Positions 100 through 43,954 of a stretch of DNA of 43,985 nt are shown here, piece after piece. This stretch comes from a virus. Made by a program: the position numbers and the translations under genes. Where the stretch lies: the IMG/VR virus record IMGVR_UViG_3300045988_075559; one strand, written 5' to 3'. The notes below the pieces were generated by a model. That model searched no databases and was not told the DNA's origin. It saw only the letters and a program-made list of their open reading frames with translations. Position 1 is the first letter of the stretch. Every line of letters starts with the position of its first letter.

Positions 100-514
100 G
101 TACTTCGAAGCTGCTGAAGTTAAACGGTATAGATTCCTCAAGCAGCTTACCTGCTTCCCAGTCCGCAAGTGTCAGCTCCGTGAACACGCAGTTATCTAAG
201 CGAATTCTTTCTGCTCCAAATGCTTCTGGATCTTCCAGGTTTGTGATGATCGTTGCTCTTGTTGCTTTTCCTTTTTTTAAATTCTCTGAAATCTTCTTTA
301 TGAAATAAGATGTCACTTTATTCAGCTTCAAGGTTCCAGATCCGCTAATCCCGGTTACCTTATACCCCTTTTCCAGCGTTCCGGTTCTCTTAACTTCTGT
401 CGTGTCAAGCTTCATTTTCGCCTGCAAAGCTGTCGTTTCTGCCATGTAGTCATTGTCTATCCAGCACTCTCCAAAAGTGCCGTTGACAACTCTGTCATCT
501 GTATAATTATTCCT
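80..514 (-). CDS. Tail tube protein (XkdM-like), proposed AGG start
   Basis: The ORF-track Met (445) is internal. The upstream in-frame codons NNYTDDRVVNGTFGECWIDNDY continue an XkdM-type N-terminus. There is no ATG/GTG/TTG in frame back to the sheath stop (527-529). AGG 512-514 lies 7 nt after GGAGG (522-526). Stop is TAG 80-82. Confidence 0.8.
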   Translation of the reverse strand, partial: RNNYTDDRVVNGTFGECWIDNDYMAETTALQAKMKLDTTEVKRTGTLEKGYKVTGISGSGTLKLNKVTSYFIKKISENLKKGKATRATIITNLEDPEAFGAERIRLDNCVFTELTLADWEAGKLLEESIPFNFSSFEVLNTIDA

Positions 515-526: not shown

Positions 527-1606
527 TTACACAGCAATCTCCAGATTAATGTCTTCCATTACGTCCACGATCGTCACGTATGCCTTCAGAAAAACTTTAT
601 TATCGGTATACTGCTTTTTGATTTCCTCCTCTGACATTGCTTCTGCTTCGTCTCTGGAGACCTCCTTGTTTTCGATGATATATTCTTTTATCGCTTCTGT
701 ATCCAAGCCAATTTCATAGTCCTGTATCAGCCCGTTTCTTTCCAACTCTTTCAAGTAAGAATTGATCGCTGATATCAGGAGGCATTTGTTACTGTATGTG
801 TTTGGATACTTTCCGATATAGTTATCCTCGGCCAGCAGCACCAAATCGTCGTGGATCATATCCATTGTCTCTACAACACGGATTTTTTTCCACGAATCAG
901 CTTTTCCTTTCTGAACTGTCGTCAGAGAGTTGACGCCTTTTGCTACTTTTACTTTTTCTCCATCGTAGAACACAACAAATTTTCCTGAATCCACAGCAGT
1001 ATCCAGTGCATCTTTATCCAGTTTTTCACATGCGCTTACTTCTTCCAACACGGCAAATGTAGATGATATTTTATACGATGTTCCCGCAAGAAGTCCGGCG
1101 ATCCTGGAACAGAACGCCTCTGGCGTATATTTCTTATTGTTTACAATCACTTCGCTCGTTGCATAATTTATAATGCCTTCATTGTCCGCCGTATTATCAG
1201 GCAGAATTGCCTTTACCCTGTTCCTATTGCCATCTCTCTGCTCTTTTACCCATGTCAGGACGCTTTCTTCCTGTCCATCAGTCTTTACAGTCGGACAGCA
1301 CAGCCATGTTACTTTTTTGATTTCAAAGTATTCTAAAGCCTTGCTGTAATTTTCTTCTATTTTTTCAAGGACATATACAACTACCTTTCTTGGAGTTGTG
1401 TCATTTCCTTTCAGCGCAAATTTGATCTGTTCTTTGCTTTCTTCACTAAATGCTTCCGGGATATCTTTTTCACTGTAAATAACAGTCGGGTTTGCGGTTG
1501 GTACCGTTGTTTCTTTTATGATCATTCCAACCGTTCCACGTTCAGCTCGTCTTATTGTTTTTCTCGCCGCTGCCACAAAGACAACGTTCATTGTTGGTAA
1601 GCCCCT
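527..1606 (-). CDS. Contractile tail sheath protein (XkdK-like), proposed AGG start
   Basis: Sheath-like 354-aa ORF directly upstream of the tube gene. AGG 1604-1606 is 9 nt after GGAGG (1616-1620), overlaps the upstream stop TAG (1605-1607), and adds GLPT before the ORF-track Met (1591), which has no SD. Confidence 0.8.
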   Translation of the reverse strand, partial: RGLPTMNVVFVAAARKTIRRAERGTVGMIIKETTVPTANPTVIYSEKDIPEAFSEESKEQIKFALKGNDTTPRKVVVYVLEKIEENYSKALEYFEIKKVTWLCCPTVKTDGQEESVLTWVKEQRDGNRNRVKAILPDNTADNEGIINYATSEVIVNNKKYTPEAFCSRIAGLLAGTSYKISSTFAVLEEVSACEKLDKDALDTAVDSGKFVVFYDGEKVKVAKGVNSLTTVQKGKADSWKKIRVVETMDMIHDDLVLLAEDNYIGKYPNTYSNKCLLISAINSYLKELERNGLIQDYEIGLDTEAIKEYIIENKEVSRDEAEAMSEEEIKKQYTDNKVFLKAYVTIVDVMEDINLEIAV

Positions 1607-3147: not shown

Positions 3148-4302
3148 TCATACTCCTGTAACAGTTGCATCTTTAATTGTCAGCTGCCCGTTCACGAACG
3201 CTTCTTCGTCTTTCACCGTGCAGTCTTCCCTTTCGATTGCCCTGAAGATTGTAAGATCTTCTTCAAATGCATTCAGTTCTCCGATCTGGGCGATGTTAGA
3301 TGTCATAAGAGTCATCTGGTTTCTATCCCAGAATTTGATACCCTCTTTCAAATCTCCGATAATAACTGGTATCTTTCTACTTCCTGCTGTCTTTGTATCG
3401 GATGGCATATCGGAGTTTGGAATAACTTTGACAGGAACAATTGTTGATCCAGCGCAAAGTCTAAGCTGCATTGGATTTGCAGGATCCGGCTGGAGAAGAT
3501 ATCTTCCTTCGTTATCCTTTAATGTATCAAGCCACTGTAACCCATCGTCGTTTGTCACAATTGCAGAAGTAGGTTTAAATGCCTGTCCAAGCGTGATATT
3601 CAATGCTTTCTTGATATCATCAAGATCTTTCATTGCTGTTACATCCTTTGTCGCAATCTGCTCAAGAATCATTTTATTTCTTGTGACTCTTGACTCATCC
3701 GCAATCCATGTTGTCAAAGCTCCCGTAATATTTGCATCTGTATCCGCAAGAAGTTCATTTGTGCAAGGAAAATATCCTGCATATTTTTCAATCTCGTATG
3801 AGATTCTTTCGAACTGCGGGGTTGTTCCAGCTGTTATCTTTCCACCTTCTCCCACTTTCGCAAACCCAGTCTGCTGCGCACGTTTCTTATAGGTTCTCTG
3901 GCCTTTGTTTGTTGTTACATTTTCTACATCAACCAGGCTGATCAGAGAGAATTTTGCGCCTCTGTATGTATTGATCTGTGTCTGGATGTCTTCCGGGACT
4001 GTATATCCTCCATCTGCAGGTGTGCCTTCTACCATAGTTGCGTTTCGGAATCCTCTTCTTGCAGCATTAGCAAATTCTTTGATAGAGTTATTTTCTAACG
4101 GTTTCGGTTCCTGTGATGGATTGGCTGTTCCATCTCCGTCTGGATCCATGATGTCTTTCAGAAGGTCAAACTGTTCCTGCATATCTTTAAGTTCTTCCTT
4201 GGCTGTTCTTGCTTCTTCCAGCTTTCCCTGCTCTACCAGGGACTGTACCATTGTTTTTTTCTCATTAATAGAGTTTAAAAGTTCTAATAATTTTTTATTC
4301 CT
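3148..4302 (-). CDS. Major capsid protein (HK97 fold type), proposed AGG start
   Basis: Capsid-like 367-aa ORF downstream of the protease. AGG 4300-4302 is 5 nt after GGAGG (4308-4312) and adds NKKLLELLNSINEKKT, a coiled-coil N-terminus. No ATG/GTG/TTG lies in frame before 4251, and that ATG lacks an SD. Confidence 0.85.
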   Translation of the reverse strand, partial: RNKKLLELLNSINEKKTMVQSLVEQGKLEEARTAKEELKDMQEQFDLLKDIMDPDGDGTANPSQEPKPLENNSIKEFANAARRGFRNATMVEGTPADGGYTVPEDIQTQINTYRGAKFSLISLVDVENVTTNKGQRTYKKRAQQTGFAKVGEGGKITAGTTPQFERISYEIEKYAGYFPCTNELLADTDANITGALTTWIADESRVTRNKMILEQIATKDVTAMKDLDDIKKALNITLGQAFKPTSAIVTNDDGLQWLDTLKDNEGRYLLQPDPANPMQLRLCAGSTIVPVKVIPNSDMPSDTKTAGSRKIPVIIGDLKEGIKFWDRNQMTLMTSNIAQIGELNAFEEDLTIFRAIEREDCTVKDEEAFVNGQLTIKDATVTGV

Positions 4303-4319: not shown

Positions 4320-4982
4320 TCAGATACCATACTGATCTAAGTCTCTTAATATTTCTTTTTTCTGCTGTTCTTTTGCTTCCTGGGCTTCTTTTTCCTGTTT
4401 TACTTTATTGCGTATTTCATCCGTCAGTCTGACTCCGCACACGCAATTAAAGAACTGCTGCCCTGAATTCTCGATCTTATCAATAAATCCAAGTTCAAGA
4501 GCCTTCTCTGCTGTGATCCATGTTTCCTTATCCATCATTTTCAGGATTTCATCTTTTGATCTTCCTGTTTTTTTTGCATACGCTTCCGAAAGCGCACTGT
4601 TCATTGTTTTCAGGATTTCTGCGTTCTTCTGCATATCATGATAATCTCCGGAAGCTCCTGACATTGAGACATTGTGGATCATTATAGTCGCAACAGGGCT
4701 CATTTTGCATGTGTTTGCCATTGCAATCACACTGGCTGCACTACCAGCAAGCGATTGAATGTTGATTTCCACGTCACTTCTTCCGGCAAGAATAGAATAG
4801 ATTTCCTGTCCTGCCATCACAGAGCCGCCGCCTGAGTTTATGTTTACCGTGAGTGTTTCTCCTGGTTGAAGAGAGGCAATTGCATTCCTGATATCATTCG
4901 GACATGTGGAATCCCAGTCCAGCCAGTCGTAAATCCATTTATCATCATTGCTGATGATATCCCCTCTTACATCAATCTCCAT
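4320..4982 (-). CDS. ClpP-family (S14) prohead maturation protease
   Basis: ATG 4980-4982 is 8 nt after GGAGG. Motifs: ...NINSGGGSVMAG...LAGSAASVIA...IMIHN. Confidence 0.85.
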   Translation of the reverse strand: MEIDVRGDIISNDDKWIYDWLDWDSTCPNDIRNAIASLQPGETLTVNINSGGGSVMAGQEIYSILAGRSDVEINIQSLAGSAASVIAMANTCKMSPVATIMIHNVSMSGASGDYHDMQKNAEILKTMNSALSEAYAKKTGRSKDEILKMMDKETWITAEKALELGFIDKIENSGQQFFNCVCGVRLTDEIRNKVKQEKEAQEAKEQQKKEILRDLDQYGI

Positions 4983-6252
4983 CTCCTTCACCTCCCTGTG
5001 TGTTAACTCCGTAAGCCGCGCCTATATGTGTTATTGGCTGATACGTTCCGTTTACCATGTTGACATCTCCTCCGTCCACGAAAGGAAGATCAAGGAGATC
5101 TCTCCCCTCATTGATCGTATAGATTCCGTTCTGCACGTATCCAGTTATTACTTCCTTCTGTGTCTTTGAATCCGTTCTCAATAATGCTTTTTCGTTGAAT
5201 TTAAAATAATATCCTTCTTTTTTCTCAGTATCAGAAAGACATTTATAGTTTATCTCCTGCTCGTACTGTGACAATCTATAGCTCATCGTGTCCACCAGGA
5301 ATGCCAACTGCTGGCTTTCAGAATTTGAATAGCTTGACTTATCATAATCGTTTAGCTGATTTGGTTTAATTCCGAATGCTGCTGCAATCTGCAATGCCGT
5401 ATATTTTTTTATCTCTGCATACTGCGCATCTGCCAGAGTTACGTTTAGTGGCTGCAGTGTCATACCAACTGGTACCGCCACCACTTTACCTGCGTTTTTA
5501 GCGCCTGAAAGTAATGCGTTGTATTCCTTTTGCAAGGCCATACGCTTTGGTTTATCAAGGTCTCCTGTATACTGCAACGCTGCCTTTGCGGTTAATCCGC
5601 TAGCATACAGCTGATTCAAGTATTTCTGTGACTCCACTGCGCCCGAAATTGAATCCTGTAAGATCTGCCTTACCGGTTTTCCCATGATTCCATTAAGTGT
5701 GCACCATGTTTTAAAGTGCATAACATTATCCTGTGAAAAAGTGTATGTCTTTCCGGTCTTAGGATCGCTGTATCGATAATACAGCCTTCCTGCGTCTCCG
5801 AACACTCCCACATCATCCATTAGCACATCCACATAATTGCTCTGCATAGGCCAGAATGAAAGAATGTTGTATTCTCCTCCATATCTTCCCTTTTTCTCGA
5901 ATTTCGTCTGTATCCATACATACGCATTTCCATAATGTTCACAATTATATTCTATCGTGCCCCAGAACGTCGCCGGAGTCATGATCTGATTTGGTCTGTT
6001 CATAAGGAGCCATGAAGCTCTCGTCGGATCTGCCCGTATTTTTCCCTTATCGGTCTGCTTATAAAATTTCAGTGGCATTTTCCCCATTGTTTCTGAAAGC
6101 ATTTTTAAGCATGTAAAATACGTTACTTCTCCAATTGCATTTCGTGGGGTTTTTGGATCAATTCCAAGCCACTCCATTAGCCTTTCATCATCTATTGATG
6201 TAGGCTCTCCAACAAGGGAATTCCACATTTCTTTAATTTTCTGTAGAATCCT
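4972..6252 (-). CDS. Portal protein (HK97 family), proposed AGG start
   Basis: Portal-like 418-aa ORF after TerL. AGG 6250-6252 is 7 nt after GAGGAG (6260-6265) and adds ILQKIKE. The ORF-track ATG 6226-6228 has no SD. Confidence 0.8.
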   Translation of the reverse strand, partial: RILQKIKEMWNSLVGEPTSIDDERLMEWLGIDPKTPRNAIGEVTYFTCLKMLSETMGKMPLKFYKQTDKGKIRADPTRASWLLMNRPNQIMTPATFWGTIEYNCEHYGNAYVWIQTKFEKKGRYGGEYNILSFWPMQSNYVDVLMDDVGVFGDAGRLYYRYSDPKTGKTYTFSQDNVMHFKTWCTLNGIMGKPVRQILQDSISGAVESQKYLNQLYASGLTAKAALQYTGDLDKPKRMALQKEYNALLSGAKNAGKVVAVPVGMTLQPLNVTLADAQYAEIKKYTALQIAAAFGIKPNQLNDYDKSSYSNSESQQLAFLVDTMSYRLSQYEQEINYKCLSDTEKKEGYYFKFNEKALLRTDSKTQKEVITGYVQNGIYTINEGRDLLDLPFVDGGDVNMVNGTYQPITHIGAAYGVNTQGGEGDGD

Positions 6253-7996
6253 TCAATATCTCCTCAATAAAATTATCAATGTAATCTCCGTAATCGTCTC
6301 CGAATGCATGAAACATTGCCAGCTTATACGCACATAGTGTTGCATCCACCGGGTCGATTCTCTTTGTTGTTGCATCTTTATCAATTTTGATCAATCCATT
6401 GTTCTGCCGGATTACCGCATTACTCATCGCATAATTCAGCAGAGGATTGTAAGTATATATAATATTTCTGCAAAATACCTGCTCTCTGAATCCCTGTGTT
6501 GCTTCGTTTAAATGTTTGTGGCTCTGAAATACTTCTTCGACATCGTATCCTTCATCTGACAGATCCATCATTAATTTACTTGCATTTGCAGGGTCAAAGC
6601 ACAGGCATTGTATTTTTAATTTCATTTTTTCGCAGGTCTCAAGAACATATCTCATAACTGCTCCCTGATCTACGATCGGAGTGTTTGTTACCTCCAGAAA
6701 TCCCATACGTTCCCACGCGTCATAGGCAACCTTGTCTTTTATAATATGTTCCTGAAGCTTCTCCCTTGTCGGGATAAAACTGTGTGACCAAAGAATATAC
6801 TTTACTATTTCTTTTCTATTCGCATCATATTCCCCGGATAAAAATGGAATCATAAACGCCACTGATGTAAGATCTGTCTTTGCGGACATATCGAAACCTA
6901 CATACACCGGATGTCCCGTTATATCAAATGGTAATTCATTCACCTGGCAGGCTTTCCATTTCGACATGTCCATATACCCATTCTCTTTCGCCTGCACCCA
7001 GACATCCAGACATTTTGTGAGGAAGGCCGTCATATGTTCTGGCTGTTCTCTGGCAATCTTATATTCACCGCGAATCTTATCGACACCTTCCGGATATGTC
7101 ATTCTAATCGGATTAGCTTTCTTCCAAGTCTCTTCGTTATCCAGATTTGAAATGTCTTCATAATCTTCCGGGTCCATCTCACAAATGTCGATTAGATATT
7201 CATCATTCTCCACGTCCGTGTTTGGATCCAACACCTTGGAACAATACTGATACTCAGTCACATAACAAGGATAAGTTAAATCCATTCCAGCTGTTGTTAT
7301 GATCATCAAGAGCGGCTCTTTTGTGTTTGATCCTATTCCTAAATCATAGAACTCCGTGGTTTTGTGCTGATGATACTCATCCAAAACCAGAAGTGCAGGG
7401 TTTGTACCATCCCCGGACTTTCCATCGTCTTTTGATAATGGTTTGATTGTGCTATTGCTTTTCAGATGTTTTATACAGTCCCTGGTTACCTTAAATTTCA
7501 TCCTCAAAGGTGATCCTTGAAGCATTAATCCGGCTTCCCCGAATACAATCTTGGACTGATCGCGTTTTGTGCCGGCGGTATAAATCTCGTATACTTCTCC
7601 GTTCTTGGTTGATGTAACTGCTGCCTCATAGAGTGCAATACCTGCCTCTTCCTGAGATTTCGCATTCTTTCTAGCCACTTCTGTGAAATATTTCTTAAAA
7701 CGTCGATATCCGGTATCTTTATGCACCCATCCGTACAGCTGGCAGATTCTAAATCTCTGCCATGGTGTTAGAATGATCGGTTGCTTTGCCAGAACTCCTT
7801 TACTATGTCGTAAGAGCGCAAACCATTCTACAATGTTCTCTGCCTGTCTTTCATTCCACACATACGGGAAATCCAATTGACCGATTCGGTCAATATCTTT
7901 CAACAATCTTTTGCAGGCCCATATGTGTTTCCTGCCGCTGATAATCTTTCCAGAGATACAATCTAATGCGTATTGTTTTAATTCATCAAGGATCAT
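6233..7996 (-). CDS. terL: Terminase large subunit
   Basis: 587 aa with ATPase and nuclease halves. The ATG overlaps the TerS stop (ATGA coupling). Confidence 0.9.
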   Translation of the reverse strand: MILDELKQYALDCISGKIISGRKHIWACKRLLKDIDRIGQLDFPYVWNERQAENIVEWFALLRHSKGVLAKQPIILTPWQRFRICQLYGWVHKDTGYRRFKKYFTEVARKNAKSQEEAGIALYEAAVTSTKNGEVYEIYTAGTKRDQSKIVFGEAGLMLQGSPLRMKFKVTRDCIKHLKSNSTIKPLSKDDGKSGDGTNPALLVLDEYHQHKTTEFYDLGIGSNTKEPLLMIITTAGMDLTYPCYVTEYQYCSKVLDPNTDVENDEYLIDICEMDPEDYEDISNLDNEETWKKANPIRMTYPEGVDKIRGEYKIAREQPEHMTAFLTKCLDVWVQAKENGYMDMSKWKACQVNELPFDITGHPVYVGFDMSAKTDLTSVAFMIPFLSGEYDANRKEIVKYILWSHSFIPTREKLQEHIIKDKVAYDAWERMGFLEVTNTPIVDQGAVMRYVLETCEKMKLKIQCLCFDPANASKLMMDLSDEGYDVEEVFQSHKHLNEATQGFREQVFCRNIIYTYNPLLNYAMSNAVIRQNNGLIKIDKDATTKRIDPVDATLCAYKLAMFHAFGDDYGDYIDNFIEEILKDSTEN

Positions 7997-8502
7997 ATTG
8001 CACCAAACCGGTTTTCAATTTCTTTCTGCTGCTTATTCACTTTTGCCGTGCCGGCTTTCAGTCTCGAATCAATTGTCAATCCACACAAGGCAGCAAAGCG
8101 TCGCATTTCTTCCGCATATCCTTTCTGAATGTCTACCATCGGATTCTTTACGACAATTACTCCGGTTCTGGTTTCTCTGTCAACATAATATGTCTGCTGA
8201 CTTAATATTTCTGTGGCTTTTACATAGTTTGCGAACGCATTACAATAGCCTCCGATATTATTCCTGTCCAGGTTTCCGACTATATTTAGTTTATCCAACT
8301 CTTTTATGATCCTGCGCCATTCTTTTTTTGCCACATCATCTATCAGCCATGTCGGAGGACGTTTGAGCTGGTTTTTCTCTGTTCTTACCTGGTCTTCTGC
8401 GTCTGCTTTCTTTTGTCCTTCTACTATTGTCAGGTGCTTTTTCTGCAAGCTGACTGGTTTCATTGGTCTTGCCCTTGTCCTCCCTCCTCTCTGGCCTGCC
8501 AA
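7993..8502 (-). CDS. terS: Terminase small subunit (P27 family)
   Basis: TTG 8500-8502 gives MAGQRGGRTRARP, the usual family N-terminus. ATG 8542-8544 is an alternative. Neither has a clear SD. Confidence 0.65.
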   Translation of the reverse strand: MAGQRGGRTRARPMKPVSLQKKHLTIVEGQKKADAEDQVRTEKNQLKRPPTWLIDDVAKKEWRRIIKELDKLNIVGNLDRNNIGGYCNAFANYVKATEILSQQTYYVDRETRTGVIVVKNPMVDIQKGYAEEMRRFAALCGLTIDSRLKAGTAKVNKQQKEIENRFGAI

Positions 8503-8578: not shown

Positions 8579-8980
8579 CTATCCCCCGGTGGTCTTGAAA
8601 CGCATCTGAAAGTCTCTCAATTCCTCCTGCACTACCGTCTTTCCCTCTTTCTCATATCGTTTATGTATCTCTTTATGTCCAGCTCTTGAGACTGGAATCA
8701 AATTTGAATCTGAATAGAACAAATCAGGTCTGTCTTGTGATAGCTCAATATGATGTGCCGTATCTGCTGTTACTATTCTGTTGTACTTGTACAATATATA
8801 GATATCCAGTCCATCATAACTGTTAAGTACAAACTGTCTCAGATTCTTCCATCGTTGTGTGTGATATTCTTTCTTTATTCCGGTCGGCTTCGCGTACTCT
8901 CTGATGTTGTTCTTTCTGCACGGGCAGGTAGTTCCTGCCGGTACCCTACCCCCACATCTACCACATCGTTTGTATATCAT
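8579..8980 (-). CDS. HNH endonuclease (packaging-associated)
   Basis: ATG 8978-8980 is 5 nt after GGAGGG. Zinc-knuckle Cys pairs plus HHIELSQ...NLIPVSRAGHKEIH. The ORF-track extension to 9028 would overlap a tRNA. Confidence 0.8.
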   Translation of the reverse strand: MIYKRCGRCGGRVPAGTTCPCRKNNIREYAKPTGIKKEYHTQRWKNLRQFVLNSYDGLDIYILYKYNRIVTADTAHHIELSQDRPDLFYSDSNLIPVSRAGHKEIHKRYEKEGKTVVQEELRDFQMRFKTTGG

Positions 8981-9001
8981 GCCATCCCTCCTGTTCTCTG
9001 A

Positions 9002-9072
9002 TAGCGGGAGACGGATTCGAACCGCCATTCCAGGCTAAGGAGGCCTGTAAGTTTCCGTTACTTTATCCCGCG
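9002..9072 (-). tRNA. Initiator-like tRNA with anticodon CCU (decodes AGG)
   Basis: 71-nt cloverleaf with acceptor CGCGGGA/UCCCGCU and C1 opposite U72. D stem AAGU/ACUU (A11:U24); anticodon arm CAGGC-CUCCUUA-GCCUG; T arm GGCGG-UUCGAAU-CCGUC; A73. No encoded CCA. Confidence 0.75.
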
Positions 9073-9079: not shown

Positions 9080-9153
9080 TGGACATTCTGAGATTTGAAC
9101 TCAGGACCGTCCGGTTATGAGCCGGATGCTCTGACCAGCTGAGCTAAATGTCC
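9080..9153 (-). tRNA. tRNA with anticodon CAU, elongator type (Met or Ile2)
   Basis: 74-nt canonical cloverleaf: GGACAUU/AAUGUCC (G1:C72 paired), D arm GCUC-AGCUGGUCA-GAGC, anticodon arm UCCGG-CUCAUAA-CCGGA, T arm CUGAG-UUCAAAU-CUCAG. Confidence 0.85.
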
Positions 9154-9202: not shown

Positions 9203-9235
9203 GGAAAATCAATATGAGTCTGGTGTTAAACCGGA

Positions 9236-9303
9236 GCAGAACATCAGGATTCGAACCTGCGGCTCCATGGCTCACGCTCGCTCCTATTTGGCGAGATGTT
9301 CTG
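9236..9303 (-). other. Degenerate tRNA-like element (acceptor, D and T arms; no anticodon arm)
   Basis: CAGAACA/UGUUCUG acceptor, UCGC...GCGA D arm and GCAGG-UUCGAAU-CCUGA T arm. Only 17 nt (G CGUGAGCCAUGGAGCC) sit where about 23 nt of anticodon arm plus variable loop should be, and they do not pair. Confidence 0.4.
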
Positions 9304-9380
9304 GTAGTCTGCCAAGTGGGTACTGGCAGACAACTAAGGGAAGGAGAACTCTGTATGATCTTCCACTGAGTTCAGTTTAT

Positions 9381-9425
9381 ACTATAACATTTTGAATCGG
9401 GACATTTGGGACATTCGGGACAAAC
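9381..9425 (-). promoter_or_regulatory. Putative late promoter: three tandem 9-bp repeats plus extended -10
   Basis: Minus strand GTTTGTCCC GAATGTCCC AAATGTCCC (9425-9399), then GATTCAAAA, then TGTTATAGT (TGn-TATAGT, 9389-9381). It sits directly after the putative activator gene and upstream of the tRNA cluster. Confidence 0.4.
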
Positions 9426-9426
9426 T

Positions 9427-9849
9427 TTAATTTTCTTTAAAAAATCTTTGAAATTCTTTTTTTACGCTCTCTTCTGTGGCTTTTCTTCCCATCTTTCCAG
9501 CTACCTGCTGCCACGTCAGTTCTTCAAACACCTTGTATTTTATGATTCTCTGCATTCTTGGAGGAATTGTGTTTAGCCACCCTTCTACTTTTGTCTTTAG
9601 CTGCTCTGCCTGTTTTCTTCTCTCTTCCAGTACCTTCTGTCGATAGCGCAGTTGGCTGTCGTCCTTAATAGAAAATGTTGTTCCCTGCACCTTGAAATGT
9701 TTTGGGTTATAAGGAAATTCGGGGTTGCTTCCAGACACGTTTGTCTGTATCACTGTCTTTTTCTTTCTGTTAAGCTTTTTAATCTCCTGTTCCGTTTCCC
9801 TGATCAGTTCGCAGGCATCTACGTATTGATTCAAAATATTCTTATCCAT
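9427..9849 (-). CDS. Putative late-gene transcriptional activator (sigma region-4 / ArpU-RinA-like HTH)
   Basis: ATG is 8 nt after GGGGAG. The C-terminal ...LTWQQVAGKMGRKATEESVKKEF resembles a sigma-r4-type HTH. It sits just upstream of the packaging genes. Confidence 0.4.
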   Translation of the reverse strand: MDKNILNQYVDACELIRETEQEIKKLNRKKKTVIQTNVSGSNPEFPYNPKHFKVQGTTFSIKDDSQLRYRQKVLEERRKQAEQLKTKVEGWLNTIPPRMQRIIKYKVFEELTWQQVAGKMGRKATEESVKKEFQRFFKEN

Positions 9850-9934
9850 CGGTATCGCTCCCCTTTCCTTCTTTTCACACTTTCAGCCGGGAGCTTTGCG
9901 GTTCCCGGCTTTCCTTTCAATGTCTTTTATTTTT

Positions 9935-10198
9935 TCATGCCGCTCCATGGAGCATTAGATATAGTTTTGTGTATCCAGGAGAAGTGTATTGCCCGTTTTC
10001 CAGCTGTAATTGTACCACATAGGGATATAATTTTATAACAGTTGCTGTATGGTATATGATTCGTGTGCTGTTTCCATCATCTCTTACCCACGCTTTTAAT
10101 TTAATCTTTCTGCCTGGGCGGACTTTGAACGTTCTTTTGAGTGTCTTTCTTATGTCTCCCATTCTCATGAGAGGGATGTTGCTTTTGTCGTAATTCAT
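9935..10198 (-). CDS. Hypothetical protein (87 aa)
   Basis: ATG preceded by GGAAGGAG; the palindrome 10211-10225 abuts its SD. Confidence 0.6.
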   Translation of the reverse strand: MNYDKSNIPLMRMGDIRKTLKRTFKVRPGRKIKLKAWVRDDGNSTRIIYHTATVIKLYPYVVQLQLENGQYTSPGYTKLYLMLHGAA

Positions 10199-10210
10199 TT
10201 TTCTCCTTCC

Positions 10211-10225
10211 TGACCGATTCGGTCA
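10211..10225. repeat. Palindrome TGACCGATTCGGTCA, copy 1
   Basis: Exact 15-mer, also at 13382-13396 and 30902-30916. This copy is intergenic, directly upstream of an SD. Confidence 0.9.
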
Positions 10226-10305
10226 CTTTTTGTTCGTAGAATCTGTATTCCTTGCAATTCGTTCCGGCTGTAACATTTTTGTCTTTGATGATGTGCAATG
10301 TTCAT

Positions 10306-10659: not shown

Positions 10660-10913
10660 ACCCAGCACCCTTTCATTGACGGTACATCAAATTCTGTTCT
10701 CTGGAAGAATATCCCTATCCAGTATGTCTGAATATCTTTCTGCAGTTCTTCCAGTGTATCTTTTACAATCACGGTATCTGTTGGTTTGGTTAATTCAAAT
10801 ATTCTGCCTATGGATTTCGTCGGATAATCTTCCGGGTGTTCAAATACTGCAATGATCGGGAATCTGATGTCCTCTAAATTTATCTCCTGTATCGATGTGA
10901 CGATCTTATCCAT
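10656..10913 (-). CDS. Hypothetical protein (85 aa)
   Basis: ATG is 6 nt after AAGGAG. Confidence 0.6.
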   Translation of the reverse strand: MDKIVTSIQEINLEDIRFPIIAVFEHPEDYPTKSIGRIFELTKPTDTVIVKDTLEELQKDIQTYWIGIFFQRTEFDVPSMKGCWV

Positions 10914-13396: not shown

Positions 13397-13397
13397 T

Positions 13398-31737: not shown

Positions 31738-32478
31738 TTAAAATTTTAATCTGTATTTCAATCGGCTTCTTTTTCTGCTAAAACGCACCTTATCTACGGT
31801 TGGATCAGAATACATTTTGAGTCTGCCCTTTACAACCTTAAAGGCGGCAAAATGGACGTTTCCGGTTTCGCCTTTAAGTTCAGTTTCTTTCTGGTGGACA
31901 TAATTATCAATGTCTTTCTTTCCCTCTTCTACTCTGCCGGGAATAGATGCTGCAACTTTCTGTGCTTCTCCGGCATAGTATTTCGCATTGTCTTCTTTTT
32001 GCTCCGGATAATCTCCTCTTCCGTGTGCCCAGGCCTCTGCCTGGTCTCTGGCTTTTTCTGACCGGTCGGCTGCCTGATTGACTGCCTCGACCGTCTCTCT
32101 GAAAATCTCCGGTTCTTCCGGCGATCCGGGAACCTCCGGTTTTGGTCTTGCTTTTATTGGTATGGTTATTTTATGTTCTGTATTTCCAGAATTATTTTCA
32201 CTCAGGTATATGAATGCGTATATTTTGTAATTTTGGTCGATTTCTTCGTTCTCCAGCATGGAATCCGGAATTGGCACATCTGTTACAGAATCTTTCGTTG
32301 TTCCTATTCTTGTTACAGATGTTCCGCCTGTTTCTTCCAATGAGAAATGTATCTCAATAGCCGGCCGTAGAGTAAGTCCCTGAATTCTTAAAATTTGTCC
32401 ATAATCCCACTGCCACGCTGTTTCGGCCCGAATATTTGTTTCTGCTTCTGAAAAAACAGCAGTGATTATATTATTCCT
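31738..32478 (-). CDS. Fibre-module virion protein (family not recognised), proposed AGG start
   Basis: The frame is open for 46 codons upstream of the ORF-track TTG (32340, no SD). AGG 32476-32478 is 6 nt after GGAGG (32485-32489) and overlaps the rSAM 3' end. Confidence 0.6.
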   Translation of the reverse strand, partial: RNNIITAVFSEAETNIRAETAWQWDYGQILRIQGLTLRPAIEIHFSLEETGGTSVTRIGTTKDSVTDVPIPDSMLENEEIDQNYKIYAFIYLSENNSGNTEHKITIPIKARPKPEVPGSPEEPEIFRETVEAVNQAADRSEKARDQAEAWAHGRGDYPEQKEDNAKYYAGEAQKVAASIPGRVEEGKKDIDNYVHQKETELKGETGNVHFAAFKVVKGRLKMYSDPTVDKVRFSRKRSRLKYRLKF

Positions 32479-34482: not shown

Positions 34483-35142
34483 TCATTTTACCGCAGATGA
34501 AACCTGCCCATAGCATGTATCTTTGCATGTATTTCCGCAATTAGTAGAACAATTTGACGAGCATGAAGTACTGCATCCTCCGCAAATCGTAGAACAGCTA
34601 TTTGAACACGATTCCGCGCATCCTCCCATGCATGAAGATGTACATTCGGATCCGCATGAACTTCCGCATGAGCTGCATCCAGAACAGCCAGTGCATGATG
34701 TCGAACACGATGCTGTGCATCTATTGTCGCATCCAGTACAGTATCCTGAACATGTCCCAGAGCATCCAGAGCAATCGTATGAACAACTGTACCCGCATCC
34801 AGTACATCCATTTTTGCAGCCGCCCGAACAGTCATCTGCGCATGTTGCAAAGCAATTGCCTCCGCATGCATTTGTGCAGTCTGCGCAAGTCTGCGCACAA
34901 TTTGTCGTGCAGGTCTGGAAGCAATCCGTTTTGCAGCCACCCGAACAGTCATCTGCACATGTTGCCTGACAACCCGTACATTCATCCTCACATGCTCTGT
35001 TGCATAGCCTATCACAATTCCCACTGCATCCAGTTTTACAGCTGGTTGAGCATGCGGTTCCGCATGAGCTTCCGCAATTTCCTTTCGTCGTATTTTGACA
35101 ACTTGTCGCGCACTGAGTTCCGCAACTAGATGTACAAGCCCT
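34483..35142 (-). CDS. CXXX-repeat Cys-rich protein (219 codons, 54 Cys), proposed AGG start
   Basis: Absent from the ORF track. This 660-nt open frame, (AGG)ACTSSCGTQCATSCQN...CKDTCYGQVSSAVK, has no N-terminal ATG/GTG/TTG. AGG 35140-35142 is 8 nt after AGGAGG (35151-35156). Stop is TGA 34483-34485. Confidence 0.7.
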   Translation of the reverse strand, partial: RACTSSCGTQCATSCQNTTKGNCGSSCGTACSTSCKTGCSGNCDRLCNRACEDECTGCQATCADDCSGGCKTDCFQTCTTNCAQTCADCTNACGGNCFATCADDCSGGCKNGCTGCGYSCSYDCSGCSGTCSGYCTGCDNRCTASCSTSCTGCSGCSSCGSSCGSECTSSCMGGCAESCSNSCSTICGGCSTSCSSNCSTNCGNTCKDTCYGQVSSAVK

Positions 35143-35163: not shown

Positions 35164-35691
35164 TTAAGCTTTTATTGATGTAGTGCATCCCGCGCCGCAT
35201 GTATGTGTGCAGCCGCTCGAACAGCCGCCTGTGCAGCCGCCACAGCCGCCTGAACAGCCATCTGAGCACTGTTTTCCACATGTAGTGCTACAGTTTCCAG
35301 AGCACGAAGCGCACCCCATACAGGCAGATGCACAGGCCAGTTCGCATAGACCTGTGCAATTCCCCCTACACCCCGATACCTTTGCATCTTTCTGTATGTT
35401 CAGCATTTTGTCTGCGAAATTTTCCGCTCTTTCCAAAGTCATTTCAAGAGCAGTTCTTTCTTTTCTCAGACTGTTATCTTGCAGGAAATCATTGATTTCC
35501 AGAAGTGGATCAATAATCTTTTGAATGTGCTCATCTGAAACCTGTTTTCCATTCTGCGGCATGAAATCAAAATCATATTCCTGCGATGCATATTTCTTCA
35601 GTGAACCTCCCATTTGTTCTGCTGTTCTGCTCATCATTGTTTTTTTTACTTTTTCTTTGATCCGTTTCAAAGATTCAGCTGTTATAATCCT
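35164..35691 (-). CDS. Protein with helical N-domain and C-terminal CXXX-repeat tail (17 Cys), proposed AGG start
   Basis: AGG 35689-35691 is 7 nt after AGGAG (35699-35703). The ORF-track TTG 35670 lacks an SD. C-terminus: CRGNCTGLCELACASACMGCASCSGNCSTTCGKQCSDGCSGGCGGCTGGCSSGCTHTCGAGC. Confidence 0.7.
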   Translation of the reverse strand, partial: RIITAESLKRIKEKVKKTMMSRTAEQMGGSLKKYASQEYDFDFMPQNGKQVSDEHIQKIIDPLLEINDFLQDNSLRKERTALEMTLERAENFADKMLNIQKDAKVSGCRGNCTGLCELACASACMGCASCSGNCSTTCGKQCSDGCSGGCGGCTGGCSSGCTHTCGAGCTTSIKA

Positions 35692-38604: not shown

Positions 38605-40536
38605 TTATAGACCTTTGTATCTTCCTCCGTTAACAGCTGCTGTCACTTTCTTTCCCTTCCATTGGCTTACATTAAGCAATGCTCCGGAATTTGAGTAATC
38701 ACTTCCACCCATGCTCTCAAATTCTATGATTGACCATCCAGACGATGGATAATCCTGCCAATGTCCGTATGCGCTTCCATTTTTATCTCCCGCGTTCTTT
38801 TCGTCCGCGACAAGGCAGTTTAACTTTATTCCTCCTTCCAGAGTAAAGCTCACAAGGTCTCCGCAGGATCCGAAGTATTCCCCAACTGCAACAAGATAAT
38901 ACCCATCTATTGTCGCAATTCCGTGATCGCTTGCCCGTCCTTTAGCATTCCACACATTCGCGACTCTTCTTTGCATAGAGTCTCCATTCCACCTGCTGTA
39001 CCAATATGGATATATTGTGTAATCCCATGGGCATATCCCAGATTGCTGCAGTCCTGCTGGTATTGGTTTCGATGTCCCGGATATTGTTGTGTCATTTCCT
39101 GTCGAAGCCGTCGTAGTAGGATAATCTATATAGCAAAATCCAAGGACTGTGCTGCAGGATGGACCGTTACTTCTTTTTACGGTATCGCTCAGATTGCCTT
39201 CTATGGAAACCCAGTTGTTTCCGGACATACTTTCGATGATTCCAATGTGTCCAGATCCTCCGTAGATAACCAGTGCTCCAAGTCGTGGCGAACTTCCAAA
39301 CTTTCCCCTATCCTTATACCAGTCCATGACATTAAAACAATATGCTTCTTTTCCTCCTCCCATGAAGAGATCGCCGTGTCCTGTTTTATTGAATATGGCC
39401 CAAATGAACATACAGCACCATGCCGCATCCCACCCATAATAGGTCGTTATTTCATTATGATTGCTTCCTGGCGGGTTCTCGCCCACTCCAATCCAGGCTC
39501 TTGCCTGATTTAGCACATCCTCTAATGCGTTACTTGTCCCTGATCCGAAAGAACCTTCCGATGTTTCCTGTTCTTCATCCTCTTCCTGGATGTCCATAAT
39601 ATTTTTAAAAGCCAGTTCCAGTTTTGTGGTGTATAAACCGCCACTCCATTCATGGCTGTCATTTTCTATCCAAAACTTTCCCTTGAGGCCGGTTCTGGAA
39701 TCTTCTATGATCACTCCTAATCCGGAGATGCATCTGCAGTCTCCTATCATTGTCAGGCTTGATGTTTTATCAATCCCATGAAGTTCTGTCTTCGCTTCTG
39801 CTTTTCCATTCCCCGAATCTACAGATATAGAATTTTGAAAGATTCCGAATTTATCAGCCCACTTTGAATTACTTATGCTTCCTATCTTTCTATTATCCGA
39901 ATTGTATATGTACACTCGGTTTACCATGCTGTCAATGTTTTCAGAATAAGAGGATTCTACAATTCTTTCCCCCTGGCAAATGTGGAAATTGGGGATAACT
40001 TTTCCTTTTTGTATAACCTCCAATTTATCTCTGTTCATCTGGGCTATATATGGCTTTTTATTCTTCCTGTACGCTTTTGTATATGCAGCCATGATGATTT
40101 CATAATACGATCTTTCCTGGAAGAATATTTTTGGAATGTTTATTTTGGTTTTAGCCAGGTCTCCCGTTTTTACTTTTACATCCTTGCATACCAAGGATGT
40201 AATCTTTTCAGGCGTCTTGTTTGCAAATTTGTAGGTTCCCGACGATCTGAGTAAATGAATCATTCCGTCCTGTGCGGTATACGAAAGTTCCCCTGCCTCT
40301 GATTTTCTTTCCCTGCATGTTACCATCCCAATGAATTTTGTCTTTTTATCATCCGGATATCCTGGGTAAAATGTTATTTTATCTCCCAGTTTAATTCCCA
40401 GGTTCTTTACGTTTTTGTCATTTGGGCTATATGCAACATTAAATACTACTGATCTGGCCGCTTGTTTTGCGCTTCCCGACCAGCTTACCGATGTAACGTA
40501 CCCAGTTATATTCGTATCTTTCCAATTCAGTTTCAT
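38605..40536 (-). CDS. XkdQ-like baseplate hub protein fused to CHAP peptidase and a further C-terminal lytic-like domain (tail lysin)
   Basis: ATG 40534-40536 overlaps the upstream TGA. CHAP signature ...DAAWCCMFIWAIF...GHIGII...EGN. Confidence 0.65.
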   Translation of the reverse strand: MKLNWKDTNITGYVTSVSWSGSAKQAARSVVFNVAYSPNDKNVKNLGIKLGDKITFYPGYPDDKKTKFIGMVTCRERKSEAGELSYTAQDGMIHLLRSSGTYKFANKTPEKITSLVCKDVKVKTGDLAKTKINIPKIFFQERSYYEIIMAAYTKAYRKNKKPYIAQMNRDKLEVIQKGKVIPNFHICQGERIVESSYSENIDSMVNRVYIYNSDNRKIGSISNSKWADKFGIFQNSISVDSGNGKAEAKTELHGIDKTSSLTMIGDCRCISGLGVIIEDSRTGLKGKFWIENDSHEWSGGLYTTKLELAFKNIMDIQEEDEEQETSEGSFGSGTSNALEDVLNQARAWIGVGENPPGSNHNEITTYYGWDAAWCCMFIWAIFNKTGHGDLFMGGGKEAYCFNVMDWYKDRGKFGSSPRLGALVIYGGSGHIGIIESMSGNNWVSIEGNLSDTVKRSNGPSCSTVLGFCYIDYPTTTASTGNDTTISGTSKPIPAGLQQSGICPWDYTIYPYWYSRWNGDSMQRRVANVWNAKGRASDHGIATIDGYYLVAVGEYFGSCGDLVSFTLEGGIKLNCLVADEKNAGDKNGSAYGHWQDYPSSGWSIIEFESMGGSDYSNSGALLNVSQWKGKKVTAAVNGGRYKGL

Positions 40537-41230: not shown

Positions 41231-43396
41231 CTACGCTGTTTGTGGCATGTTGTCACTTGCCTCTTCGATTTTCCTTACAATCGCTTCTGCTATTTTATCA
41301 ATATCAGAATCATCTCGCACTACGATACTGTCTGCAAGCTTCGCAATTTTGACTATAAAGTTCTTCTTTGCCTCCTGGCGTGCCTTCTGTACAGATTCGT
41401 CGTGTGGATACACTCTGCTTCCAGATGGAAGATCTACAATCTCTCCACCTTTTTCACTGATCTGTACGATACCTCCCTGCCAGTTATCTGTGCCTTTCGC
41501 AAGAGTTGGGATTTGTGGTATGTTAAGGCCCTCCCAGCCTTTTCCTCCTATTCCGGGTACCCACTCAGGAACTGTAAAATGAATTGAATTAATCTTGCTG
41601 ATCGCTCCATTGACGATTGATATCACAGCATTAATTGGAACTTTTACCATATCAGCCAGTCCTGAGAATGCAGTTCCTACAAACTCCTTGCATCCATTCC
41701 ATACAGATTCCCAGTCTGTTTTAAACACACCGTTCAAAAAGGAGATAATTCCTTCGAACATAGTGAGTAACGCATCAATGGCAACTCCAATCGTATCAAA
41801 TGTTCCGACGATAAATTCTCCGGCGAAATTAAAGATTTCTTCGACTACCGGTCCGAATGTCTCTTTCAGGTATGATGCTATTTTTTCCACAAATTCTATG
41901 AACGGTTCTAATTGCGGTTTTACTGTCTGCCAGAATTCCACAAATCTATCTCCTATCTTCTGCAAAATAGGTGCGATTCTGTCCCAGTTTTTATAGATCA
42001 GCAGAGCCGCTGCTGCCACTGCTGCTGCCGCAATTCCAAATGGTCCTGTCATTATCTTCGCAATTCCCGAGAATCCTGAAGCACCCGTCAGTTTTGTAAT
42101 CGCACCACCTATTTTTCCAAAATTTGAGATTACTGTTCCGATTCCGGAGGACACTTTCCCGAACCCAAGTAAAACAGGTCCTACTGATGCCGCTACTGCT
42201 GCAAATTTGACTATCGTCTTCTGAGTTGCCGGTCCTAATTTATTCCATTTGTCCGTAAATTTCTGTATGGCATTAATCCCTTTTGTAACATACGGAATCA
42301 ACTGGTTCCCAATTGGTTGCAGCACATCTACCTGTATCGTTCTCCAAAGTCCTCCCAGAGCGCCTGATAATGTATCGTATTTTACATTTACCAGTTCTTC
42401 GACAGACTCCTTGCTTTTATCTATTGCATCACTCGCCGTCGACATAGAGGTTATAACCTGAGGTCCCAAATCTTCCCACATGGTTCCGAATAGGTTTACT
42501 CCAGCTGCACTCTGTGCTACCGGATCATCCATGGAAGCAAGTCCTTCTATGACTTCGTTGAATGCTTCTTTTGCAGTTTTCCCTCCAGCTCCAAACTTTT
42601 GTGCCATTTCGTCTGCATTCATCCCGAGAGCCTCGAATCCCTGTTTCGTCGTGTCTGATCCATCTATCGCTCTGATTGAGAATTCTTTTACCGCATCTCC
42701 GATCTTATCCAGATTGAAAGCTCCGTTCTGTGCACCGTTTGCGAATACAGAAAACATATCCTCTGCATCCAGTCCCAGCTTCTTGAACTGTACGGAGTAT
42801 TCGTCAATGTTGTCGAAGAGTTCATCTGAGAAATTCAATCCTGATTGCATGCCCTGAGTCATGAGATTGAATGCTTCTCTTGCTGATACCCCATAGTGCT
42901 TTATAAGTGCGTCGGCTGCTCTTGTGCTTTCTGCTACATCTACGTCAAACGTATCTGACAGCGTATATGCGTATTCCGTGCATCTCTGCAGGGCAGAATC
43001 GTCCAGATAGGACATATTCTGGTTGACAGTTGCCATTGCTTCCGCAACATCATTGATGGACTCACCAAAATTATCTTTATAGACATTGTTGATCATGTCT
43101 TTATATTTGCCCATCTCATCTGTTGCGGTACCTGTTGCCGCCGCAAACTGCTGAAATGCGTCCTGTGAATCAGAGGAAAATTTAATTGCTGCAGTTCCGA
43201 CTGCTGCCAGTGGTGCAGTGACCGACTTGGTCAATGTTTCTCCGGCAGATGTAAATGCATCTCCGGCATGAGAGAACACATCAGCAACATTGTTAAAACG
43301 TTTTTCCAGGTCACGAGCCTGGGCCGCCACCTGTTTTGATGGATCGCTGAAATCATCTATTAACTTAACAACTGCTGCAACCGTCTTACCTGCCCT
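41231..43396 (-). CDS. Tape measure protein, proposed AGG start
   Basis: AGG 43394-43396 is 10 nt after GAGGAG (43407-43412) and adds AGKTVAAVVKLIDDFSDPSKQ before the ORF-track GTG (43330, no SD). Helical and Gly/Ala-rich hydrophobic segments. Confidence 0.8.
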   Translation of the reverse strand, partial: RAGKTVAAVVKLIDDFSDPSKQVAAQARDLEKRFNNVADVFSHAGDAFTSAGETLTKSVTAPLAAVGTAAIKFSSDSQDAFQQFAAATGTATDEMGKYKDMINNVYKDNFGESINDVAEAMATVNQNMSYLDDSALQRCTEYAYTLSDTFDVDVAESTRAADALIKHYGVSAREAFNLMTQGMQSGLNFSDELFDNIDEYSVQFKKLGLDAEDMFSVFANGAQNGAFNLDKIGDAVKEFSIRAIDGSDTTKQGFEALGMNADEMAQKFGAGGKTAKEAFNEVIEGLASMDDPVAQSAAGVNLFGTMWEDLGPQVITSMSTASDAIDKSKESVEELVNVKYDTLSGALGGLWRTIQVDVLQPIGNQLIPYVTKGINAIQKFTDKWNKLGPATQKTIVKFAAVAASVGPVLLGFGKVSSGIGTVISNFGKIGGAITKLTGASGFSGIAKIMTGPFGIAAAAVAAAALLIYKNWDRIAPILQKIGDRFVEFWQTVKPQLEPFIEFVEKIASYLKETFGPVVEEIFNFAGEFIVGTFDTIGVAIDALLTMFEGIISFLNGVFKTDWESVWNGCKEFVGTAFSGLADMVKVPINAVISIVNGAISKINSIHFTVPEWVPGIGGKGWEGLNIPQIPTLAKGTDNWQGGIVQISEKGGEIVDLPSGSRVYPHDESVQKARQEAKKNFIVKIAKLADSIVVRDDSDIDKIAEAIVRKIEEASDNMPQTA

Positions 43397-43562: not shown

Positions 43563-43954
43563 ACTTCTTCTTCAGCGTCTTCTCCAAGTCCTGAGAGCTT
43601 TACGATTTCTGATGCAATGCTTCCAGTTTCCATTCCGAACAGAATCGCCGCAAGATCCTTTGGCGTAGAAGCCCCAAAATGTTCCATCAATTTCTGATCA
43701 GTCAGACATGGATCCACGACACCGTATACACAGCACATTAAATTAAAATCATATGTGGCATTCATGTCACGGTTTCCCTTTTTGTCATACAGCATGGCCT
43801 GAAGGGTGTTGTATCTTTTTCCTGATAATTCTCTAATCGTAATCTCTGCGTCTTCGCCTACCAGTTTGGCCAGCTTCTTTGATTTAATTTTTTTTGTCTC
43901 TTTCTCTGTGGCTTTTGCTTTATCTACGCTGAGTAACTTTTCAATTAAATTCCT
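43550..43954 (-). CDS. Tail assembly chaperone (XkdN-like), proposed AGG start
   Basis: Open frame of 52 codons upstream of the ORF-track ATG (43795) with no ATG/GTG/TTG. AGG 43952-43954 (= 66-68 in the left repeat copy) is 7 nt after GGAGG (43962-43966). Confidence 0.7.
   Translation of the reverse strand, partial: RNLIEKLLSVDKAKATEKETKKIKSKKLAKLVGEDAEITIRELSGKRYNTLQAMLYDKKGNRDMNATYDFNLMCCVYGVVDPCLTDQKLMEHFGASTPKDLAAILFGMETGSIASEIVKLSGLGEDAEEEVKNL
43556..43562 (-). promoter_or_regulatory. Slippery heptamer A AAA AAC
   Basis: It is in the zero frame (GT)A AAA AAC, two codons before the chaperone stop. Confidence 0.7.

Follow-up and report, generated by a model that had tools for sequence, protein, structure and literature searches.

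A probable AGG start codon for a phage portal gene and a phage-encoded initiator-type tRNA(CCU) that may read it

The gut phage genome IMGVR_UViG_3300045988_075559 from IMG/VR, a DNA stretch of 43,985 nucleotides (nt) analysed at full length and referred to here as the window, carries a portal gene that appears to begin at a codon outside the standard bacterial set. Sequence comparison argues that AGG at positions 6252-6250 is quite probably the main start of this gene and that it is read by a phage-encoded, initiator-type transfer RNA (tRNA) with the anticodon CCU, tRNA(CCU). A Shine-Dalgarno (SD) motif, GAGGAG, located 7 nt upstream and inside the end of the terminase gene, would position the 30S subunit on the AGG, and the codon would then be decoded by tRNA(CCU), carrying CCU in place of CAU, and not by the host initiator tRNA. 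The portal start is one instance of a phenomenon that extends across the genome and the clade, for which the literature searched holds no natural precedent.

Anatomy of the portal start

All genes around the portal start lie on the minus strand, and coordinates are window positions. The features of the region are as follows.

6260..6265, minus strand: SD motif GAGGAG, with the core AGGAG and 7 nt to AGG; GAGGAG or AAGGAG in relatives
6250..6252, minus strand: AGG, the proposed portal initiation codon, directly after TGA; aligned with the ATG of locus L001 and conserved in 33 loci
6229..6249, minus strand: seven codons encoding ILQKIKE, the portal N-terminal extension; these fit the profile of canonical-start portals
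6226..6228, minus strand: ATG chosen by open reading frame (ORF) lists and gene callers, without an upstream SD core; the aligned residue is A, I or V elsewhere
4972..6252, minus strand: portal gene as re-annotated, 426 codons plus stop; PF04860; canonical-start homologs have 424-430 amino acids (aa)
6233..7996, minus strand: large terminase gene; PF03354 and PF20441; overlaps the portal SD, AGG and first codons

Reading along the minus strand, GAGGAG (6265-6260) is followed by the spacer ATATTGA (6259-6253), AGG (6252-6250), the codons ATT CTA CAG AAA ATT AAA GAA (6249-6229), and then ATG (6228-6226) and TGG AAT. The AGG is in frame with the 418-codon portal ORF running to 4972, and an in-frame TGA (6255-6253) abuts it, leaving AGG as the first codon of the open portal frame. 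A longer portal ORF from an upstream canonical start was also considered and is impossible with this TGA immediately before the AGG. The same bases serve the large terminase gene in another frame, as its 3' end reads GAG GAG ATA TTG AAG GAT TCT ACA GAA AAT TAA, with the stop at 6235-6233, and the portal SD, the AGG and the first portal codons all fall within its last 11 codons. The anti-SD match is at least 5 nt long (AGGAG) and the 7-nt spacer lies within the 5-10 nt of SD-led starts, while the codon itself is not among the ATG, GTG and TTG of SD-led bacterial starts.

The first-pass annotation of this DNA had placed an AGG 7 nt after GAGGAG within the terminase 3' end, and every coordinate of that description is correct on the minus strand. 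It had also described the ATG at 6228 as lacking a purine-rich element upstream. The 12 nt in question, AAAATTAAAGAA, are in fact purine- and A-rich, so that this wording was loose; they contain no GGAG or GAGG core and thus no SD-like element. The distance from the terminase stop to this ATG is 4 nt.

The product is an HK97-type portal protein (PF04860, 282 bits, E 6e-84, above the Pfam gathering score), and its neighbours (PF03354/PF20441, PF00574 and PF05065) give the gene order terminase-portal-protease-capsid. At the other end of the large terminase gene, the ATG (7993-7996, minus strand) lacks an SD and shares bases with the small terminase stop (ATGA), which makes it a classic coupled start; the phage thus uses both strategies. 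The predicted N-terminal peptides are x-ILQKIKEMWNSLVGEPTSIDDER for a portal begun at AGG as against MWNSLVGEPTSIDDER for one begun at ATG, x-NKKLLELLNSINEK for the capsid and x-NNYTDDR for the tube.

The portal N-terminus among homologs

A search with the AGG-extended portal matched 4,337 homologs. The closest, at 86-99% identity, are all annotated from MWNSL..., the start that gene callers choose because they accept only ATG, GTG and TTG. Portals with a canonical start at 65-80% identity are 424-430 aa long and begin M-x-I-[LIM]-N-[RK]-I-K-x-A-W-N-x-L. In the window, the codons directly after the AGG give I-L-Q-K-I-K-E-M-W-N-S-L; the called start Met falls opposite the Ala of these homologs and thus looks like an internal substitution. 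When ILQKIKE was scored against a profile of 32 distinct canonical N-termini, it reached 14 bits, and only 19 of 20,000 permutations were as good. The codons upstream of the called start thus match a conserved portal N-terminus and look like part of the portal coding sequence, constrained in this frame at the level of the protein. That an AGG start would add ILQKIKE to the portal had been proposed from the letters alone; the frame is confirmed, and the extension fits the N-terminus of canonical-start portals. Judged by this alignment, the ATG at 6228 most likely encodes an internal Met where relatives have Ala, and it is possibly also a minor coupled restart site.

Portals of several related clades (P0019-P0035, P0068-71 and P0083-P0120) are annotated 20-47 residues short, at 400, 386, 402, 381 or 379 aa. 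In the clades whose DNA was checked (L005 and L055-57), the true portal start would be AGG, and capsid, tube and sheath show a like truncation.

The portal start in the DNA of relatives

Loci of relatives were gathered by exact-protein look-ups and pattern scans, and their portal starts were compared. In L001, which is 73-78% identical over the compared N-terminal stretch, GAGGA and 8 nt precede ATG ATT TTT CAG AGG TTT AAA, and this ATG aligns exactly with the AGG of the window. The window clade and the 91% (L002-type) clade keep the string AGG ATT CTA CAG AAA ATT AAA in 33/33 loci, while the bases just upstream of the conserved AGG differ between the two clades (TTGA vs TACACG).

More distant lineages also present AGG at this place. 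L005 reads AAGGAG, 8 nt and AGG AAT ATA ATT AAA AGA ATA TGG AAC, followed by another in-frame ATG only after ~23 codons. L006 has GGAGG, 7 nt and AGG GGA TTT ATA, one codon upstream of the AGG of the window and with no in-frame ATG within the stretch read. The loci L055-57 have GGAGG, 9 nt and AGG AAA ATA ATT GAT AAA, which encodes KIIDKVKAAFHALARPS as in homologs beginning MKIIDKVKAAFHALARPS; their AGG aligns with the start Met of the nearest canonical homologs (P0046 and P0053), and in L055/56 the next in-frame ATG lies 46 codons downstream of it. From these sequences, AGG with an SD 7-9 nt upstream appears to be the only plausible portal start in L005, L006 and L055-57. L045 carries AGG GAA TTT AAA, again with no in-frame ATG within the stretch read, and its nearest SD core ends 15 nt upstream of the AGG. 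Altogether, five or six lineages have AGG at the portal start, preceded by an SD at a distance of 7-10 nt (15 in L045). An SD and an ATG one codon upstream of the aligned position are found in L007, L009/L044, L046/L008 and L108-L110, as well as in L048 (GGAGG and 7 nt), where the automated table took a nearby GTG instead.

AGG and ATG therefore substitute for each other at the portal start in several lineages, and the comparison supports the proposal that AGG, rather than the ATG of the ORF track, starts the portal gene of the window. Relatives were located in genomes of Lachnospiraceae (Blautia and Enterocloster), with six loci coming from a scan of genome contigs, and they indicate Lachnospiraceae-type hosts. 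Megablast of the terminase-portal region gave no match among GenBank phages, and the relatives detected by tblastn, all below 60% identity, were Geobacillus and Clostridium phages, so that no cultured relative is available.

Other genes with an AGG start

The AGG start is not confined to the portal gene. Minus-strand frames of at least 100 codons were screened for codons that follow a strong SD by 5-10 nt and lie no further downstream than the first canonical start; AGG was the commonest such codon (n=10), followed by ATG (n=8), with each other codon at n=1-5 and nearly all of these directly adjoining an AGG or ATG start. This stricter count was used in place of an earlier permissive one, which took codons behind any SD and was uninformative. 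Eleven AGG-start genes were compiled, including portal and small terminase; all belong to the late module, and their SD spacers of 5-10 nt are like those of ATG-start genes. No SD with an AGG start was found among the early genes (~9400-21000). That other genes share the portal architecture had been suggested before, and it is borne out by ten further late genes with an SD, 5-10 nt and AGG, listed here by the position of the codon.

8473..8475, minus strand: small terminase, AGG start candidate; AGGAGG and 7 nt
4300..4302, minus strand: major capsid, AGG start; GGAGG and 5 nt; first canonical ATG 17 codons downstream
1604..1606, minus strand: tail sheath, AGG start; AGGAGGT and 8 nt
512..514, minus strand: tail tube, AGG start; AAGGAGG and 7 nt; first ATG 23 codons downstream
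43952..43954, minus strand: tail assembly chaperone, AGG start; AGGAGG and 7 nt; PF08890 spans residues 5-132
43394..43396, minus strand: tape measure, AGG start; AGGAG and 10 nt
38612..38614, minus strand: DUF2577 baseplate-region gene, AGG start candidate; GGAGG and 9 nt
35689..35691, minus strand: 175-aa gene of unknown function, AGG start candidate; AGGAG and 7 nt
35140..35142, minus strand: 219-aa Cys-rich gene (34486-35142), AGG start; AAAGGAGG and 8 nt
32476..32478, minus strand: 246-aa gene of unknown function, AGG start; AAGGAGG and 6 nt; first canonical TTG 46 codons downstream

Seven genes, portal included, could be compared in relatives, and in these AGG trades places with ATG or GTG at the aligned codon; the canonical start is shifted by one codon from the aligned AGG at the portal and, in some relatives, at the tape measure. 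The aligned codon of the small terminase gene is ATG in L035, L005, L010, L044, L045, L108 and L109 and GTG in L110, and that of the capsid gene is ATG in 13 relatives and AGG also in L005 and L006. The chaperone gene starts with AGG in the window and L018; L049 and L032, at 98.7% identity across the compared N-terminal stretch, have ATG and differ only there. With the AGG extension, the products are as long as their canonical homologs, at 144 aa for the tube, 384 for the capsid, 426 for the portal and 134 for the chaperone. Pfam DUF2001 spans residues 6-139 of the extended tube protein and phrog_16164 residues 5-223 of the extended 246-aa protein. Pfam and PHROG profiles thus cover the extended N-termini of the tube, the chaperone and the phrog_16164 protein, and together with the codon count and the interchange at aligned codons they suggest that the AGG start is general among these genes. 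The Cys-rich ORF (34486-35142) lacks any ATG, GTG or TTG over its first ~175 codons and encodes repeats of the C-x3-C type. As an alternative to AGG, the adjoining codon ATT (6249-6247) was considered for the portal and set aside: the codon after AGG varies between genes (AAT, GCA, GGC, TCT, GCT, ATT), which leaves AGG as the sole common element.

The Cys-rich gene has a weak match to phrog_6085, and the ORF lists give an overlapping wrong frame (34488-35024, GTG) in its place. The tube gene ends at position 80, and the next gene around the circle starts at AGG 43954.

A phage tRNA with an initiator-type body and a CCU anticodon

Two tRNA genes were found by ARAGORN and Rfam just upstream of the HNH and small terminase genes, and Rfam reported nothing else in the window.

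9002..9072, minus strand: tRNA with anticodon CCU and initiator-type features, the proposed decoder of AGG starts (ARAGORN and Rfam)
9080..9153, minus strand: companion elongator-type tRNA with anticodon CAU, with G1:C72 and C11:G24

ARAGORN labels the CCU tRNA as tRNA-Arg. It folds as a cloverleaf in which C1.U72 is unpaired, as flagged by Infernal, and it has the acceptor pairs G2:C71, C3:G70 and G4:C69 with the discriminator A73, that is, the determinants of formylation. Its D stem carries A11:U24, present in 6/6 aligned CCU variants, whereas the companion elongator has C11:G24. The anticodon stem contains G29:C41, G30:C40 and C31:G39, and the anticodon loop is CUCCUUA. In E. coli tRNA-fMet, the unpaired 1:72, the pairs G2:C71, C3:G70 and G4:C69 with A73, and A11:U24 direct formylation and exclude elongation factor Tu (EF-Tu). 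The acceptor stem, CGCGGGA...UCCCGCU-A, equals the 5' CGCGGG and 3' CCCGC taken here as those of the initiators of E. coli and B. subtilis. The CCU tRNA would thus retain features that direct a tRNA to the P site, namely an open 1:72, a formyltransferase-type acceptor stem, A11:U24, A73 and, in part, the lower G:C pairs of the anticodon stem. It lacks the paired 1:72 and the pyrimidine11:purine24 of elongators. With CCU instead of CAU in all copies, it is not a tRNA-fMet in the strict sense and is better described as an initiator-type body with a new anticodon.

Seven sequence variants of tRNA(CCU) from related loci, and an eighth in L055-57, retain the initiator features, and the unpaired 1:72 is formed by different bases in different lineages (C.U in the window, U.U in L006, A.A in L045). 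An alignment of ten tRNAs (six CCU variants, the CAU tRNA of L008, two reference initiators and the companion tRNA of the window) has 1:72 unpaired in 9/10 and A11:U24 in 9/10, the companion elongator being the exception both times; the remaining stems are 96-100% paired, with compensatory changes. Against the E. coli and B. subtilis initiator sequences taken as references, tRNA(CCU) is 61-65% identical, as compared with 34% to the companion elongator. We infer from these features that tRNA(CCU) acts in initiation, and the identity of its amino acid is judged in the same way: it most likely carries Arg, by virtue of C35 and U36 plus A20 in the window copy. It may also be formylated.

A possible origin is seen in the Enterocloster lavalensis prophage L008 (NZ_PYII01000047.1), which has an initiator tRNA(CAU) at 1818-1892 with U1.U72, GGG:CCC and an unusual loop, UUCAUGC; it is ~80% identical to the E. 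coli and B. subtilis initiator references. It occupies the same place as the tRNA(CCU) of the window, ahead of the small terminase gene and 2.8 kb upstream of the portal, and it shares the acceptor GCGGGA/UCCCGC, the unpaired 1:72, A73, A11:U24 and a related T-arm. It differs in having kept CAU and GGG:CCC, and all testable late genes of L008 start with ATG or GTG. An L008-type initiator tRNA(CAU) is, on this resemblance, a plausible evolutionary precursor of tRNA(CCU).

The companion tRNA(CAU) adjoins the CCU tRNA in most relatives, resembles tRNAs annotated as Met or Ile in Bacillus, Enterococcus and Lactobacillus phages, and would decode Met, or possibly Ile2. When the tRNA pair was searched by blastn against GenBank phages, only the companion was matched, and the CCU tRNA had no match. 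A listed ORF (8579-9028, minus strand) overlaps the tRNA(CCU) gene; the true start of that 133-aa gene is likely ATG 8980, behind AGGAGG and 6 nt. A further tRNA-like element at 9235-9312 (minus strand) combines a 7-bp stem resembling an acceptor (CAGAACA/TGTTCTG) with a hairpin like that of a D arm and a T-arm-like sequence, CAGG-TTCGAAT-CCTG. It is without a recognisable anticodon arm, was not called by ARAGORN or Rfam, and is 84-98% conserved in some relatives and absent from the L002 type.

Co-occurrence of tRNA(CCU) with AGG starts and the meaning of internal AGG

Wherever an AGG-start locus extends over the region upstream of the small terminase gene, it carries tRNA(CCU) (~38 loci and ~6 tRNA lineages), and the few AGG loci without it are contigs ending short of that region. 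Loci with canonical starts only and enough upstream sequence (L008, L009/L044, L010, L109 and L110) have no tRNA(CCU); in L109 and L110 no tRNA of any kind was found across 10 kb upstream. A pattern scan found tRNA(CCU) in 50 viral contigs.

Inside genes, AGG is still Arg. Portal codon 195, an internal AGG, aligns with R in 92/104 homologs, and the sequence evidence indicates that internal AGG would be read as Arg by host elongator tRNAs. Internal AGG occurs 4.3-8.3 times per 1000 codons with tRNA(CCU) and 3.5-9.9 times without, so that the raised AGG use expected of a tRNA that supplements codon supply is not seen. A single tRNA(CCU) could then serve about eleven late genes: small terminase, portal, capsid, sheath, tube, chaperone, tape measure and four others.

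Alternative explanations

For the portal gene, the one serious rival is a start at the ATG (6228-6226) by coupling, in which ribosomes ending at the terminase TAA re-initiate 4 nt further on without an SD and the AGG is merely terminase coding sequence. Such a short gap permits coupled re-initiation, the phage uses an SD-less coupled start at the terminase ATG 7996, the window, L002-type and L033-35 clades all retain ATG 6228, and gene callers all chose it (P0001-P0016). Coupling, however, leaves the conserved portal N-terminus in the seven upstream codons unexplained, the ATG is absent in the AGG lineages L005, L006, L045 and L055-57, and ten other genes have the AGG layout without any coupled ATG. 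We therefore regard a coupled start as unlikely. A reading that accepts the AGG starts is that they are read inefficiently by the host tRNA(CAU) as a near-cognate codon, with tRNA(CCU) being an ordinary elongator tRNA-Arg for a rare codon. AGG is one position from AUG, phages often encode tRNA-Arg for rare AGA and AGG codons, ARAGORN chose this label, and the window copy has the arginyl-tRNA synthetase (ArgRS) identity elements A20, C35 and U36. An elongator is nevertheless difficult to reconcile with a 1:72 that is unpaired in all lineages but one, with differing bases, and would hinder use by EF-Tu, with the initiator type of the acceptor stem and A11:U24, with an internal AGG no more frequent in tRNA-bearing phages, and with the presence in L008 of a genuine initiator tRNA(CAU) at this locus. 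Near-cognate reading, for its part, leaves the strict co-occurrence of tRNA(CCU) with AGG starts unaccounted for, and since capsid, sheath and tube, the most abundant virion proteins, start with AGG, it fits poorly with a start that initiation factor 3 (IF3) rejects. Taken together, this reading is doubtful and seems a shade less probable than coupling.

Two further explanations have a negligible probability. AGG might be reassigned as a sense codon in phage or host, for example from Arg to Met, and mean Met or start everywhere, and an AGG-to-Met reassignment has reportedly been proposed for some uncultured Bacilli; but the alignment of internal AGG with conserved Arg (portal codon 195) rules this out, AGG usage is ordinary at 4-8 per 1000 codons, and the tRNA is without elongator features. 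The arrangement might also be due to chance or to an assembly or sequencing artefact, as the window was assembled from metagenome data and its ends overlap by 99 nt. Positions 1-99 equal 43887-43985 as an exact direct repeat, which points to a circular assembly and a complete genome of ~43,886 bp. The same AGG is found in dozens of independent assemblies (IMG/VR, ENA, Logan and metagenome-assembled genomes of GTDB), which contradicts an artefact, and the recurrence of the pattern at 11 genes argues against chance.

Apart from the short gap, the SD-less terminase start and the conservation of ATG 6228, several observations weigh against initiation at AGG by tRNA(CCU). The loci compared are phylogenetically non-independent, with ~6 tRNA lineages among them. 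The tRNA(CCU) of L055-57 has U1:A72, a weak Watson-Crick pair and not a mismatch. The third pair of the anticodon stem is C31:G39 (U31:G39 in some variants), not G31:C39, and L045 has A29:U41; most copies also have an unusual U at position 37. The base at position 20 varies (A in the window and L002 types, U in L037, L005 and L006, C in L045), so that this ArgRS identity element is not conserved among variants and Arg is a tentative assignment.

Comparison with known initiation systems

In wild-type E. coli, AGG is a poor start that is rejected by IF3 (PMC6868393). When paired with an engineered E. coli initiator tRNA(CCU), it gave the largest fold-change of 12 engineered pairs in 5/6 E. coli strains, and in Nissle 1917 the AGG/CCU pair was second only to the UAA pair, with an output above AUG (bioRxiv 10.64898/2026.04.16.719103). 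The mechanism proposed here is thus biochemically feasible. The paper on the engineered pairs mentions no natural counterpart (bioRxiv 10.64898/2026.04.16.719103), and a phage containment design built on amber start codons exists (bioRxiv 10.1101/2024.07.29.605542). The literature searched yielded no natural case of an AGG start served by a dedicated tRNA; it offered engineered systems and the use of AGG as a negative-control start.

Like the engineered initiators (amber tRNA(CUA)/UAG and metY CCU/AGG), the system of the window combines an initiator body with a non-CAU anticodon that pairs perfectly with a non-AUG start after an SD. Yet the engineered systems are man-made from E. coli metY, whereas that of the window is natural and virus-encoded, occurs in several phage lineages and concerns about eleven late genes. 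The body of its tRNA has also diverged from metY, with C.U, U.U or A.A at 1:72, C31:G39, U37 and a short D-loop. Near-cognate starts (GUG, UUG, AUU, CUG and AUA) share with it a non-AUG codon after an SD, but they use the single tRNA-fMet(CAU) through a mismatch tuned by IF3, while a dedicated second initiator with a cognate anticodon is proposed for the window.

A further parallel is the stop-codon recoding of gut phages, in which phage suppressor tRNAs read TAG or TGA mainly in late genes and a role in timing has been proposed. Both systems have a phage tRNA that alters the meaning of a codon in late genes and leads gene callers to mis-annotate. They differ in that the system proposed here acts in initiation and not in elongation, and on a sense codon whose internal meaning (Arg) is kept.

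Implications for phage biology and annotation

Taking the genes together, it is likely, if held a little less firmly than the portal start itself, that Lachnospiraceae-type phages possess a private initiation channel: tRNA(CCU), probably derived from an L008-like tRNA(CAU), would start about eleven late genes at AGG, possibly with an amino acid other than Met (e.g., Arg), and the late proteins would depend on it. From this dependence we infer that the phage tRNA may gate or protect late-gene translation. It could act as a timing switch for the production of capsid, portal, sheath and tube, or a private initiator could sustain late translation under attack on the host initiator tRNA, for example by VapC-type nucleases. 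Whether late-gene timing or independence from an attacked host initiator is the purpose is a matter of speculation.

If true, this would be the first natural case known to us of a start-codon repertoire widened by a dedicated non-CAU initiator tRNA, here encoded by a virus, and nature would have reached the same AGG/CCU pair that synthetic biology found best. Such phages would be a source of orthogonal initiator tRNAs for Gram-positive hosts. Annotation would be affected systematically: portal, capsid, tube and other genes would be truncated in public databases, with the portal given as 418 instead of 426 aa in the window and down to 379 aa in relatives, and the Cys-rich ORF at 35142 would be uncallable with standard start codons. 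Finally, the AGG starts and their tRNA would provide a testable model of how phages control or protect late translation at the step of initiation.

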